The translations under genes and the position numbers were made by a program. Shown in pieces: positions 52,411 through 60,569 of a DNA stretch of 64,000 nucleotides. The notes beneath the pieces are model-generated. The model worked only from the letters and a program-made list of their open reading frames with translations. It ran no database searches and was not told the DNA's origin. Numbering within the stretch: position 1 is the first letter of the stretch; each line of letters starts with the position of its first letter. The DNA is taken from the NCBI GenBank assembly GCA_038065955.1, contig JBBTPY010000007.1:29232-93231 (forward strand). The letters are read 5' to 3'. The DNA is from Patescibacteria group bacterium (GTDB lineage Bacteria > Patescibacteriota > Minisyncoccia > UBA6257 > UBA9933).

Positions 52411-52989
52411 TTATTCGCTAATTATTTTTTTAATTCTCTCGTCTTCCGGCCAAAGTTGAATAATTTTTTCGCCGATTGATTTAGCCTTTTCAAGCTCGCC
52501 GGTTTGCCGATAAATACCAAATAATCCGTAAAGCGGCATCGGCAATTTCGGGCCGAAATTTAAAGTCGCCCGATAATATTCTTCCGCCTTTTTTAAATCT
52601 TCAATTTTTTGATAACGGCGCCAACGCGTTTCATATATTGAAGCCACCAATAACAACTGCTTTGTATTATTTTTTAAAATATGTTTTTCAATATAATTCG
52701 TCAATTCCGTTGAAACATTTTTCGGTATATTTTCCTGACTGACAATATTTAAAAAAGTCTGCCCGGTAAAACGCGCCGATTCCTCTCCGCCAACCGGCGA
52801 ATAATAATCAAAAACTTTGTCAAAATTTTTCTTTAATTCGTCAACTGTTCTGATTGAACCGAGGTTATTCACCGCCCGGACATATTGTTGAGCTTTGCCG
52901 AAAGGCAAAAAAGCGCCAAAAATCAAGCCGAGAACGGTCAAAATAATAAAAATAATTATAATAAATTGTGTAATGAATAACTTTGCCAT
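52411..52989 (-). CDS. membrane-anchored TPR-repeat protein
   Basis: 192 aa; N-terminal TM; TPR-like YYRATLNFGP...GIYRQTGELEKAKSIGEKII. Confidence 0.55.
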   Translation of the reverse strand: MAKLFITQFIIIIFIILTVLGLIFGAFLPFGKAQQYVRAVNNLGSIRTVDELKKNFDKVFDYYSPVGGEESARFTGQTFLNIVSQENIPKNVSTELTNYIEKHILKNNTKQLLLVASIYETRWRRYQKIEDLKKAEEYYRATLNFGPKLPMPLYGLFGIYRQTGELEKAKSIGEKIIQLWPEDERIKKIISE

Positions 52990-52993
52990 AATT

Positions 52994-54421
52994 TTAAAAT
53001 TTAGAATTTTGAGTTTTGAATTTATAATTAGCGAACGCTAAAAATAAAAACAAATTTATATAGGTCGGCAAAATGTCAAAAAGCACCAGCCCTTGAATTA
53101 AATAAGCTGTCGGAACGGCGAAAATTAAAGCTCTTTGAATCAGTAAACTGCGGCCGCTAAGTTGATTTTTCTCATTATTACTGACTAGTAGTTTCAAGGA
53201 GCGCCAATAAAATACCGCCCAAATTCCAATAAAGCTTAACAATCCCAAAATGCCGGCTTGCGTCAGGTAATCCAAAAAGATATTATGAGCCCGATCATAC
53301 CACGCGCCGAAACCTTCTTTAACGGAATAATGTTTCGGATTGTAATATTCGTCAAAGGTGTAAGAAAAATTTTCCGCTCCCCATCCTAAAATCGGCCGTT
53401 CTTTAAATCCGTCAACGGCGATTTTCCAAATAACCGTCCGGTTTTGAAAATTTTCGGCTTTAAAAGAAATGTCAAAAATCCGCGAACCGGGAATATTCTG
53501 AATAAATCGGCTGTCACGTAATAAAATCACCGAACCGACGAATAAAATAACCAAAAAGCCGATTATTAAAGCGAATTTTCTAAATCGCTTCAAAGAAAAA
53601 CCAAGATAAGCCAAAGCCGTTAAAATGGCCGCGATTAATCCCACGAAAGCGCCGCGCGTCGCCGCCAAAAAAAAGAAAATTGCGAAAACCACCGCCAGCG
53701 AACCAAGAATAATCGCCAATTTTTTTTTCTCCTCTTTTATGCAATCAACTAAAAGATAGAAAACATAAAAAAGAATAAATACCAGATAAGTCGCCACATA
53801 GGCCGGATTGCCGATTGAGCCGGCAAAACGAAAACCGCTTTCCCTAAAATCGGGACCGATAAAAGATTTAAACGTTTGGTATAAAAAACCTCCTTCGCCG
53901 GTTAATACTTCTTGAGAAACGCCGCCGATATTTCTGACAGCCGTTTCGGCGTCAAGATATTTCAAACCAGCGCCAACGCCGTAAAAAATCATCAAACCGG
54001 CCGCGATAATGGAAACCCAAAACATTATCCGCCAATCTTTTTTTTCAAAAAGCAAAACCGAAAGCAGGAAAAAAACATAAAGGCAGATAATTTGCAAAGA
54101 ACCTTCGCCACGCTCAAAATTTGACCAAAAAGAAAAAGCCGGGTCAACGCCGAAAAAACCGGCTAAAACGAAAATAAAAACAAACAAAGAAACGGCGATA
54201 ACTAAAGGCCGTTTAAAAACGACTGACGACTGACGACTGACGACTGACGACTTATCCTGAAGCAATAAACCCAAAAGATAAAATATCAACGCCAAACCGA
54301 TTGTCGTTCTGAAAAACGCGTATTTGCCGACGATGAACGGAAAAAGCGTTGAGACGCTTACTACTACAACGGCAAACGGGACTAAATAAAGAAAAAATTT
54401 GGAGATTTTAAAATAATCCAT
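52994..54421 (-). CDS. O-antigen ligase/Wzy_C-family polytopic membrane protein (WaaL / PglL-PilO O-oligosaccharyltransferase superfamily)
   Basis: 475 aa, about 11-12 TM helices with large extracytoplasmic loop; N-terminal half paralogous to 54425..56800. Confidence 0.65.
   Translation of the reverse strand: MDYFKISKFFLYLVPFAVVVVSVSTLFPFIVGKYAFFRTTIGLALIFYLLGLLLQDKSSVVSRQSSVVFKRPLVIAVSLFVFIFVLAGFFGVDPAFSFWSNFERGEGSLQIICLYVFFLLSVLLFEKKDWRIMFWVSIIAAGLMIFYGVGAGLKYLDAETAVRNIGGVSQEVLTGEGGFLYQTFKSFIGPDFRESGFRFAGSIGNPAYVATYLVFILFYVFYLLVDCIKEEKKKLAIILGSLAVVFAIFFFLAATRGAFVGLIAAILTALAYLGFSLKRFRKFALIIGFLVILFVGSVILLRDSRFIQNIPGSRIFDISFKAENFQNRTVIWKIAVDGFKERPILGWGAENFSYTFDEYYNPKHYSVKEGFGAWYDRAHNIFLDYLTQAGILGLLSFIGIWAVFYWRSLKLLVSNNEKNQLSGRSLLIQRALIFAVPTAYLIQGLVLFDILPTYINLFLFLAFANYKFKTQNSKF
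54219..54253. repeat. heptanucleotide tandem repeat (ACGACTG)x4 + ACGACTT inside the Wzy_C gene; candidate slipped-strand contingency tract
   Basis: Read directly at 54219-54253; encodes KSSVVSRQSSVV on minus strand; unit length not divisible by 3. Confidence 0.8.
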
Positions 54422-59900: not shown

Positions 59901-60360
59901 GGGTTGTCGGAGTTGTTACCGCTAAACTGGAATATTTGGAGCGAGACATCGCGCCAAAAATGCCATCAGCAGTTAAACCTTTAGCTGCCTGCCAGGCTTT
60001 TACCGCGGCCGCGGTTTTTGAACCAAAATAAGTGGTTTCATTGCCCGCTGAACCGGCGCCTGAAGCCGAAACAGTATAGCTGGCGCCGTTAAGATATTGC
60101 TGTAAACATTTCACCGCGTCTCCCTTGGAACCTCGTTTCAAGGTAGAAGTGAAAGAACACAATACCGCGCTGGAGCCTTGAGCTGTCGCTAACTGACTCT
60201 GTAAAGCCTGAATCTGCGCCAAAAGAGCGCTGATTTGCGCTTGAAGGTCAGAAGAAGCAGTTTGAGCAGAGGCGATCGGCATAAAAATACCGCCCATTAA
60301 CCACACTGCGGTGGTAATGGAAAGCGCCACTGCTGAAAATTTCTTTATATTATTACTCAT
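56914..60360 (-). CDS. large cell-surface protein: signal peptide, coiled-coil, peptidoglycan-binding (PG_binding_1-like) domain, (TPT)n linker, then about 900 aa of Thr/Ser/Gly/Ala-rich Ig-like beta-sandwich repeats (S-layer/adhesin-like)
   Basis: ORF track 56914..60408; signal-peptide-like MSNNIKKFSAVALSITTAVWLMGGIFMPIASAQ begins at internal Met (60360); LQAQISALLAQIQALQSQL; PG-binding-like GDAVKCLQQYLNGASYTVSASGAG...TAAAVKAWQAAKGLTADGIFG; TPTTPTTPTTPTTPTTPT. Confidence 0.65.
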   Translation of the reverse strand: MSNNIKKFSAVALSITTAVWLMGGIFMPIASAQTASSDLQAQISALLAQIQALQSQLATAQGSSAVLCSFTSTLKRGSKGDAVKCLQQYLNGASYTVSASGAGSAGNETTYFGSKTAAAVKAWQAAKGLTADGIFGAMSRSKYSSLAVTTPTTPTTPTTPTTPTTPTTGLVLALASDNPAAQTVPLGAAGVTALKFTVSGKGTLQSLTFKRLGVGSTGDFPSSGFYLYEGSSRLTSGRSINSTTHEISFLNLALAIDGTKTLSLLIDIDTDTAGNFNYFTLTSAAGDPIPTGTFTGNPITWGSSQVGTVTATSSGSVSNPSIGKQGALLAEIKLTAGSAEDIKINQLALTEAGTITNSYLSNFVLKQSGTVVANASAIGAKDLATFAFTTPYLLEKGQERVFQIYGDISGQARSGDTIIFYFDSKSDVQATGNLYGFPVNPSIVGIDTSSEGQTLTVSGGAVTITFNGPITGDIALRGQNVEVYNFTIASANNIEIKNLRFTASTSGSLINGEGFPDMKVWDTSSNAVITSTFDVTSSTTSYVYTDVINISAGASKTYKVTVDVDADNDDGDDIKVSLAAFSLGDVKNLDNNQNVALADIVPLGSSAVAGNTMTTRVATMDVQLSSTPASQTIVRGTNLVSLAGFSFRAQNSDIKISSVKITATSSSGTLTSGEVQNLGLYDGATLISTLKSLDTSALTATFDSLSITIPKGSTKILTVKGNIAADATNGDVYYVHIAAVNSTNITVTDPAGNSATLTPSGTQINTSTGVVVTLTTSGDVSVVKAADDSESESGIVIAGSEQVLSKFRFTATNENMTINKMRLLVIPTNSAVDTSSAAADEVSMVKLYDGSTQIGSAGGYSVTGSGDNSGTVYIDSLGWVIPKDGSKTLTVKGVLNSISSGADSGASAYTSVMAAGFEAQGSTALDTGLTAATGNQMVVYKTKPTFAVPTAGSSKLTVGQIPVIKFKIKADGPEQVAWKQIQFKVSMTGASITLVDAVPGTTGNVTIKRVGASSNLNIASAFSSTSTSTGEQAAITGGNTGYVSLLLNSEETIAAGAEQEYEVALTFNNVSGTVGAASIVANLHRTETTLVSATTVSAVRSSLTTATDAAPSFVWSDYSQTSHTESTADWANGVLVKILPSSSITISN
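59861..59925. repeat. in-frame 9-nt tandem repeats (GGGGTTGTC/GGGGTAGTC x5) encoding the (TPT)n linker
   Basis: Read directly. Confidence 0.7.
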
Positions 60361-60569
60361 TATGTGTTTTATAGTTTTAATCAGGAAATAACGGATTTGT
60401 TCGAACATAGACCAAGCGGTCTAAATAAAATTCGTTATCCGCTGATTTTTATTGTATTTAACAATAATTTATTTATTATTTTTGGAAAATTATTCTTCTG
60501 CCAGTCGACCATCCGGTTATTATTATATATAACCGCCTGAACATAAAAATAACTTGATAGCAAATTAAA

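Follow-up and report, generated by a model that had tools for sequence, protein, structure and literature searches.

We analyzed a 64,000-nucleotide stretch of DNA (the window) from a Patescibacteria group bacterium (GenBank assembly GCA_038065955.1, contig JBBTPY010000007.1, positions 29,232 to 93,231). The source contigs came from Hainich groundwater metagenomes. The ultra-small Patescibacteria, the candidate phyla radiation (CPR), make up a large share of bacterial diversity. An earlier note, made from the sequence alone, had proposed that this DNA encodes a protein O-glycosylation system, in which a Ser/Thr-rich surface protein is modified by two neighbouring membrane proteins of the Wzy_C (O-antigen ligase) family. 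The relevant region, window positions 52411-60408, carries four consecutive minus-strand open reading frames (ORFs) of 1164, 791, 475 and 192 amino acids (aa), followed by an ORF of 586 aa. The ORF list and Pfam placed all five genes on the strand and at the coordinates the note had given, with the domains it had named. The features of the region are as follows.

56914-60408, minus strand: surface protein, 1164 aa, candidate surface layer (S-layer)-like glycoprotein (ORF, Pfam, AlphaFold2, Foldseek)
59950-60123, minus strand: PG_binding_1 cell-wall anchor domain, aa 96-153 of the surface protein (Pfam E 2.5e-12)
59851-59919, minus strand: disordered (TTP)n linker, aa 164-186, candidate O-glycosylation acceptor segment (predicted local distance difference test score, pLDDT, <50; Tandem Repeats Finder, TRF, repeat)
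56839-56870, minus strand: intrinsic-terminator-like hairpin with a 14-bp stem, in the gap between the surface gene and the Wzy_C-TPR gene
54425-56800, minus strand: 791-aa fusion of Wzy_C, a transmembrane (TM) helix and TPR, candidate dedicated O-oligosaccharyltransferase (O-OTase) for the type-A surface protein (Pfam Wzy_C and TPR)
52994-54421, minus strand: 475-aa Wzy_C protein, conserved Paceibacteria-type core enzyme, predicted catalytic half of a split ligase/oligosaccharyltransferase
52411-52989, minus strand: 192-aa protein, predicted detached C-terminal module of the 475-aa enzyme (adjacency, fusions, hhalign)

The note's assignment of the organism to the CPR was borne out. The 475-aa protein is 100% identical to an entry labelled 'Patescibacteria group bacterium', and the named homologs of the surface, 791-aa and 475-aa proteins all belong to Patescibacteria, with generic 'bacterium' labels and a few evident title mislabels as the exceptions. 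The lineages represented include Wolfe-, Jorgensen-, Brenner-, Lipton- and Nomurabacteria and Paceibacterota.

The surface protein begins with a signal peptide, which is followed by a helix (aa 53-76), the PG_binding_1 domain, the Thr/Pro linker and an array of Ig-like beta-sandwiches of about 980 aa. Its translation probably begins at the ATG at 60360 (MSNNIKK...), which is where every homolog starts. In the AlphaFold2 model (pLDDT 82.7, with 37 homologs in the input), the signal-peptide region and the linker are disordered, the PG-binding domain is a bundle of three helices, and the body, aa 187-1164, is confidently all-beta. In Foldseek the body resembled Ig-like domain arrays from PrgB, integrins, complement and the S-layer protein of Haloferax (7ptp), so the long Ig-like repeats that had been read from the sequence reappear in the model. 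The linker of TPT type noted earlier is also borne out: TRF finds its coding sequence to be a tandem repeat with a 9-nt unit and 6.7 copies (59857-59916), and the linker is predicted to be disordered. The mature protein has a mass of 114 kDa, a pI of 4.83 and 2 Cys residues, and 26% of its residues are Ser or Thr, versus a mean of 8.7 +/- 1.7% in 25 other ORFs of the window. Upstream of the gene lies an intergenic region of 297 nt, and downstream the hairpin with the 14-bp stem; because this hairpin is strongly terminator-like, the arrangement suggests that the surface gene is a transcription unit of its own.

A total of 511 homologs of the surface protein were found, with a near-constant length of about 1120-1180 aa. 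PG_binding_1 is kept in all aligned homologs, and in two distant ones SLH domains take its place, an exchange of anchors that is typical of S-layer proteins. The linker was compared in 39 homologs and is always of low complexity (median 21 aa; T 30%, G 22%, P 14%), with at least 3 Ser/Thr residues in 37 of them. Behind the common N-terminal anchor module, the homologs carry at least three types of body: type A, which is that of the window, type B, the majority, and type C, which is rare. Thus the protein is secreted, lies within the 40-200 kDa range of S-layer proteins, is acidic, has almost no Cys, and joins an anchor to a swappable body. This make-up, together with the predicted structure, fits an S-layer-like coat protein.

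Pfam detected Wzy_C (PF04932, gathering cut-off 31.7 bits) in both membrane proteins, at aa 213-382 of the 791-aa protein (E 5e-22, 78.7 bits) and at aa 243-398 of the 475-aa protein (E 1e-22, 80.9 bits). The two are paralogs, as the note had stated, with 31% identity over 450 aa (E 2e-49) and with every conserved motif common to both. The 475-aa protein shows a WaaL-type fold of 12 TM helices with the large external loop. The 791-aa protein has the same 12-TM Wzy_C core, an extra TM helix at aa 470-488 and a C-terminal helical domain in which Pfam finds TPR; the profile of the 791 family matches the TPR consensus strongly, showing that these repeats are genuine. Because a 12-TM core with both ends inside is followed by one extra TM helix, parity and charge place the TPR module, by prediction, outside the cell, on the same side as the catalytic loop. 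In another assembly of the same population (L084, ENA ERZ1300416, 7718-9997), the 791-aa gene is called as two ORFs, one of 434 aa with Wzy_C and one of 274 aa with TPR. This call reflects a frameshift, an assembly error or a natural split that mirrors the arrangement of the 475- and 192-aa genes.

The 192-aa protein consists of one N-terminal TM helix and a helical ectodomain with weak TPR-like matches (E 0.005). For the comparisons that follow, we retrieved 80 loci, each from another GTDB species, through the 475-aa family and mapped the window proteins onto them. A 192-aa ortholog is present in 72/74 loci and adjoins the 475-aa ortholog in 71/74 (69 under a non-overlap rule, plus two overlapping pairs). 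In five cases (L021, L048, L052, L056 and P0021), the 475-type and 192-type proteins are fused in one ORF, and residues 491-666 of the P0021 fusion are 40% identical to the 192-aa protein. BLAST of the 192-aa against the 791-aa protein was negative, and their homology is visible only by profile-profile comparison: hhalign aligned the 192-aa family with aa 473-662 of the 791-aa protein (Prob 96.8%, E 3e-10), and the alignment begins at the extra, thirteenth TM helix and includes a common LP(F/Y)xKAQ motif. Given the near-constant adjacency, the natural fusions and the hhalign match, the 475- and 192-aa pair, as far as sequence comparison can tell, repeats the Wzy_C-TM-helical/TPR architecture of the 791-aa protein in split form. 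The separate TPR protein of the earlier note is therefore present as a gene, but it is better described as the detached C-terminal module of the 475-aa ligase, and its TPR signal is weak.

We then considered to which branch of the Wzy_C superfamily these proteins belong. Three residues, R256, R328 and H379, are invariant in 25 homologs of the 475-aa protein, as are R227, R315 and H363 in 35 homologs of the 791-aa protein. Both families also keep several further polar loop residues unchanged. In E. coli WaaL, R215, R288 and H338 are reported as essential; they correspond to R224, R298 and H349 of PglL, where they are conserved (PMC3643930). Searches of the PDB with single sequences returned nothing for the 475-aa protein and a weak WaaL match for the 791-aa protein. 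A profile of 25 orthologs of the 475-aa protein matched both WaaL (7tpg, E 6.5e-8) and a solved 'oligosaccharyltransferase' (9rmk, E 1.3e-6), and the Arg of the TRGA motif, the second Arg and the His of the DRAH motif align in both structures. These data establish the two Wzy_C proteins, at the level of predicted family membership, as undecaprenyl-pyrophosphate (Und-PP)-glycan transferases of the WaaL/O-OTase superfamily. Profile placement, by which the note had hoped to tell ligases from oligosaccharyltransferases, gave almost equal matches to both, and we made no assignment to WaaL or PglL by sequence. The sole NCBIfam match of the 475-aa protein, to IctB, was sub-threshold, and we discounted IctB as its identity.

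The gene order around the module is well conserved across the 80 species. It usually runs clpB, a membrane protein of about 250 aa, a PG_binding_1 surface protein of about 1130 aa, an optional long Wzy_C-TPR gene, the 475-type gene and the 192-type gene, after which come an optional AsnB gene and finally the glycan genes, which vary. The 475-aa orthologs listed in the searches are 39-72% identical and occur in at least 80 species, and their position is kept while the content of the island differs. Among the listed Wzy_C homologs overall, identities are 33-72% across many CPR lineages, and the genes occupy a fixed spot at the edge of a variable island. Of the 53 loci with enough flanking sequence, 45 have a surface gene no more than 10 kb upstream of the 475-aa ortholog. 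We discounted plain synteny as evidence for a functional link, since clpB is equally syntenic; gene order alone is thus weak evidence.

The co-variation of the 791-type gene with the surface protein was more informative. The 791-type paralog is found in 15/15 loci with a type-A surface body, whereas it is found in 0/44 others. In 13 of the type-A loci the body is complete, and there its identity is 51-65% over about 960-990 aa. In the window, the 791-type gene lies directly 3' of the surface gene, and it lies just downstream of it in the 15 type-A loci. We tested the co-variation against ClpB and WzyC475 trees, against identity distributions and by label permutation. The presence of the 791-type gene was unrelated to the identity of ClpB or WzyC475 to that of the window (p = 0.95 and 0.91, respectively), and because these identities are alike in both groups, the co-variation is not a clade effect. 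On a neighbor-joining tree of ClpB, the 791/type-A state requires 6 changes (5-7 in bootstraps), and shuffled labels require 7.3 +/- 0.7. For three distant genes of the 791 family, picked independently, the gene immediately before is in each case a PG_binding_1 gene of about 1150 aa (3/3). The type-C surface genes of two loci (L059 and L077) are followed by a distinct long Wzy_C-TPR paralog, 41% identical between the two, and in a third type-C locus (L056) an extra short Wzy_C gene stands instead of the long paralog. Taken together, the 15/15 versus 0/44 co-variation, the at least five changes of state, the type-C paralogs and the three distant members indicate that the body of the surface protein and the adjacent Wzy_C-TPR gene behave together like a cassette of two genes. 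The earlier note had suggested two glycans or two classes of acceptor for the two ligases, and this can now be refined, in that the second ligase tracks the body type of the acceptor. The 791-type gene thus both adjoins and is co-inherited with the gene of its candidate acceptor, which is the arrangement seen for dedicated O-OTases, and the co-variation is the strongest argument that the surface protein is the substrate or partner of the enzyme.

The number of Wzy_C copies varies across genomes. In L056 (9992-13335), a fused 671-aa gene is followed by a second Wzy_C paralog of 442 aa; L037 has an extra Wzy_C paralog upstream (1931-3241), and in L089 the opposite strand carries a second gene of the Wzy_C-TPR kind (15786-16289). 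Some type-B loci (L040, 7011-9061; L069, 7833-9891) encode extra small secreted proteins very rich in Thr and Gly (339 aa, T 20%, G 16-17%), and L069 also encodes a 313-aa PG_binding_1 protein. All of them are encoded in the interval from the surface gene to the Wzy_C gene and might serve as further acceptors or as components of the coat.

The best explanation of the locus, by analogy, would be that it is the CPR (Paceibacteria-type) counterpart of a Gram-positive S-layer glycosylation locus. We consider it fairly probable, on comparative grounds, that the wall-anchored surface protein is O-glycosylated en bloc by the neighbouring Wzy_C enzymes. The genes of the island would make lipid-linked oligosaccharides by a Wzx/Wzy-type route with a WbaP-like initiator, glycosyltransferases (GTs) and Wzx flippases. 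The surface protein would be exported by Sec and anchored to peptidoglycan through PG_binding_1, with the flexible linker holding the Ig-like array. The TPR-like modules would face outward and bind or recruit the acceptor protein, and the Wzy_C cores would transfer the glycan en bloc to Ser/Thr (or Tyr) on the external side of the membrane after Sec export. The 791-type enzyme would be dedicated to the type-A body of the neighbouring surface protein, and the universal 475+192 pair would serve a conserved part of the surface protein or a wider set of acceptors. We rejected type IV pilins as the target of the system; there is no pilin gene in the window or the examined flanks, and for this reason such a target is conceivable only for the universal pair.

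A bolder version of this proposal can be put forward only tentatively, and we would rather bet against it in its full form. The surface protein would be the S-layer or outer coat of Parcubacteria-type cells, its body and its dedicated Wzy_C-TM-TPR oligosaccharyltransferase would be exchanged together between lineages as a glyco-coat cassette, and the 475+192 pair would provide a second, general O-glycosylation activity. Switching of such a glyco-coat might be driven by phage or host-recognition pressure.

Several observations weigh against the glycosylation of the surface protein as proposed here. The support for it is comparative and predicted throughout. Neither sequence nor fold tells a protein acceptor from a lipid one. 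At E <= 0.01, neither PglL_A (PF15864) nor Wzy_C_2 (PF11846) matched the 791-aa or the 475-aa protein, and no NCBIfam equivalog for ligases (WaaL/RfaL) or oligosaccharyltransferases matched either of them. In 8/53 loci the 475+192 pair lies among housekeeping genes with no surface gene nearby, and the pair is thus not strictly tied to the surface gene. Linkers rich in Thr, Gly and Pro are common without glycosylation, and that the surface protein itself forms an S-layer is a point that we infer. As to the missing domains, PF11846 occurs in 1/120 homologs among the matches listed for the 791-aa protein. TfpO, TfpM and PilO also lack both PglL_A and Wzy_C_2 (PMC3643930, PMC12645811), so their absence does not exclude O-OTase activity. 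The note's view that the Wzy_C proteins act as protein oligosaccharyltransferases on their neighbour is thus partly supported, by the co-variation, the conserved neighbourhood, the fused and split forms, the Arg/Arg/His residues and a layout like that of Gram-positive S-layer glycosylation loci, but not by PglL motifs, which are absent, or by a profile that is equidistant from WaaL and oligosaccharyltransferases.

The acceptor of a WaaL-type ligase would be lipid A-core. Domain scans found no lpx, kds or waa genes in the 64-kb window, which covers only part of the genome. For a curated Parcubacterium genome, lpxC and kdsA are reported to be missing, and the same paper calls the CPR envelope unresolved (PMC5220378). 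Because the organism is a CPR bacterium and this other Parcubacterium lacks both genes, a lipid A-core acceptor appears unlikely, by analogy with that Parcubacterium.

The Wzy_C proteins could instead be ligases that transfer glycan to a non-protein acceptor, such as a glycolipid anchor, a lipoteichoic-acid-like polymer or peptidoglycan, and so build a secondary wall polymer; the surface protein would then merely share the envelope locus or bind the polymer. We regard this as unlikely, though it is the alternative that deserves most attention. In its favour, the enzymes have the fold and the catalytic residues of WaaL, whose acceptor is a lipid, and the absence of PglL-specific motifs from both proteins agrees with it, as do the near-universal 475+192 pair, which persists where a neighbouring surface gene is missing, and the SLH domains of the two distant surface-protein homologs, since SLH domains bind wall polymers. 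However, a ligase of this kind leaves unexplained the at least five joint switches of the 791-type gene and the surface body type, as well as the paralog that type-C bodies have of their own. Moreover, an extracytoplasmic TPR is a feature of PglL, WsfB and WsaA and not of WaaL (PMC2943079), and no lipid A pathway is expected in CPR (PMC5220378).

It is quite improbable that one or both Wzy_C proteins are Wzy repeat-unit polymerases or chain-processing enzymes for a capsule or exopolysaccharide. Some Wzy polymerases do contain the Wzy_C domain, and the genes border an island of Wzx/Wzy type, but polymerases are serotype-specific and highly variable, whereas the 475-aa orthologs are conserved and fixed in position; a separate Wzy-like candidate (27031-28359) already lies in the island, and neither the pairing with TPR nor the pairing with the surface type would be explained. 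Similarly improbable is a role of the Wzy_C-TPR proteins as non-catalytic or differently catalytic factors for export, anchoring or lattice assembly, or as IctB-like transporters, which would accord with protein binding by TPR, with the coupling to the surface gene and with the IctB match of the 475-aa protein, but not with the invariance of the Und-PP-handling Arg/Arg/His and other polar loop residues in both families or with the location among glycan-synthesis genes, IctB itself being a Wzy_C protein of unproven function.

Returning to O-glycosylation of the surface protein, we compared the locus with known systems. The closest described ones are the slg clusters of Geobacillus stearothermophilus NRS 2004/3a (WsaA/WsaB/WsaP, with sgsE) and Paenibacillus alvei CCM 2051T (WsfA/WsfB/WsfP, with spaA) (PMC2943079). 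In both, the putative O-OTase (WsaB or WsfB) is a Wzy_C protein; WsfB shares with PglL a TPR at the C-terminus, and WsaB, which has none, is preceded by the 168-aa TPR protein WsaA (PMC2943079). In P. alvei wsfA encodes an asparagine-synthase homolog, WsaP and WsfP are WbaP-like, sgsE lies close to its slg cluster, and the S-layer genes are monocistronic (PMC2943079). The window locus resembles these clusters in its monoderm setting, in the combination of Wzy_C and TPR, either fused (WsfB and the 791-aa protein) or split (WsaB with WsaA and the 475+192 pair), in having an AsnB homolog (compare WsfA) and a WbaP-like initiator, in a surface gene that is close by and, in the window by prediction, separately transcribed, and in the low GC content of the glycan genes. 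The likeness to WsaB and WsfB is drawn from published descriptions, and the window locus is known from its genes alone. Unlike the slg clusters, the window appears to export its glycan by a Wzx/Wzy-dependent route, and domain scans found no Wzm/Wzt ABC transporter in the window, which has two Wzx proteins and a Wzy-like protein instead. Its surface anchor is PG_binding_1 and not SLH, it has two tandem ligase modules, one of which co-varies with the body type of the acceptor, and the module is conserved across a class-level CPR lineage and shows the cassette behaviour described above.

With PglL, PglS, TfpO (PilO) and TfpM, the window enzymes share a Wzy_C domain with Arg/Arg/His and target genes that are often adjacent. 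O-OTase genes usually adjoin those of their targets, as for TfpO, TfpM, PglS and many PglL homologs (PMC3643930, PMC12645811), and the acceptors include flexible low-complexity segments rich in Ser, Thr, Ala and Pro (PMC3643930). The window enzymes differ from this group in lacking PglL_A/Wzy_C_2, in a target that is not a pilin, in an organism without a periplasm bounded by an outer membrane, and in a TM-TPR module that is split or fused. They differ from WaaL of Cupriavidus metallidurans (PDB 7tpg/7tpj) in an identity of only about 16-17%, in the absence of a waa/lpx context in the window, in the extra TM-TPR module and in the genetic coupling to a protein. The surface protein shares with the csg protein of Haloferax volcanii (7ptp) an Ig-like array, an acidic composition and a paucity of Cys, with no detectable sequence relationship; archaeal S-layers are mainly N-glycosylated by AglB, and a lattice in the window organism is a conjecture. 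The exchange of anchors (PG_binding_1 for SLH) and the joint exchange of body type and modifying enzyme are also S-layer-like. A parallel is offered by Clostridioides difficile, in which S-layer cassettes are switched together with a glycosylation cluster. An SlpA glycosylation mutant of this species is mentioned in 10.1101/2025.04.02.646754.

A literature search for CPR O-antigen ligases, S-layers and glycosylation yielded nothing specific and no paper describing the module. If our reading is correct, the locus would identify, for Parcubacteria-type cells, a conserved major surface protein, the enzymes that modify it with sugars and a cassette-like mode of surface variation, and it would extend Wzy_C-type protein O-glycosylation beyond the Gram-negative and Bacillales systems treated in PMC3643930, PMC2943079 and PMC12645811; compact pairs of oligosaccharyltransferase and acceptor would also be of possible interest for glycoengineering. 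Should the glyco-coat cassette hold as well, the envelope architecture of the CPR, and protein glycosylation within it, would for the first time be defined in molecular terms. If the acceptor is a lipid or the wall instead, the locus points to an unknown CPR pathway for a cell-wall glycopolymer. The locus is a concrete, testable handle on how poorly understood CPR cells build their surface, and on our reading the protein, its enzymes and the cassette would be accessible to heterologous expression without cultivation.

The remaining features of the window belong to the island and its flanks.

13258-50694, mixed strands: glycan assembly island (Pfam, NCBIfam)
13258-14583, plus strand: WbaP-like phosphoglycosyl transferase (TIGR03025, 341 bits versus a cut-off of 296)
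14580-16049, plus strand: Wzx flippase
25590-27047, minus strand: Wzx flippase
27031-28359, minus strand: Wzy-like protein
50649-52409, minus strand: asparagine synthase (AsnB) homolog, 586 aa (Pfam E 8e-79; TIGR01536, 464 bits versus 267)
60705-61475, minus strand: conserved multi-TM protein, 256 aa, in the gap between clpB and the surface gene (no Pfam or NCBIfam match)

The initiator, the two Wzx proteins and the Wzy-like protein of the island agree with the note, but its count of at least 10 GTs is slightly too high: the island has 8 GT genes with 9 GT domains. In addition to these and the initiator, it encodes methyltransferases, nucleotide-sugar enzymes of the GDP-mannose-dehydratase type, a DegT aminotransferase and GtrA. 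An AsnB gene follows the 475+192 pair in 17/53 loci, and its product may amidate a sugar or glycan. At the position between clpB and the surface gene, a membrane protein of 245-276 aa was found in every locus with ORFs listed, and the 256-aa protein of the window may be part of the surface module; about 95 nt at its annotated start coincide with the 3' end of clpB. Relaxed Pfam scans of the 256-aa ORF, and of a 207-aa and a 624-aa ORF, gave nothing useful.

Several other gene groups were noted in the island, all on the minus strand. In its middle (19697-20726), the gene of a Polbeta/NTP_transf_2 nucleotidyltransferase (20142-20726) shares an overlap with a 160-aa ORF (19697-20179) that matches HEPN weakly, and the two look like an inserted MNT-HEPN toxin-antitoxin pair. 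At 40934-44699 lie a GtrA-like flippase (44328-44699), a GT2 (40934-41638) and the 624-aa protein without a Pfam match (41635-43509), which is probably a membrane protein judging by its T-rich coding strand; the three could form a Gtr/CsbB-YfhO-like three-component set for extracytoplasmic decoration of a glycan. At 45450-49227, genes for a class II aldolase, a PRK/uridine-kinase-domain protein of 709 aa and a HAD phosphatase stand side by side, with an NTP-transferase-like gene next on the coding strand; they suggest the synthesis of an unusual activated sugar, and the same genes follow AsnB in L085. Finally, two further large secreted proteins are encoded on the minus strand, one of 1619 aa with four Lamin-tail domains and fn3 (6063-10922; Ser/Thr 16%) and one of 925 aa with Laminin_G_3 inside the island (20891-23668; Ser/Thr 12.5%), both of which are less rich in Ser/Thr than the main surface protein.

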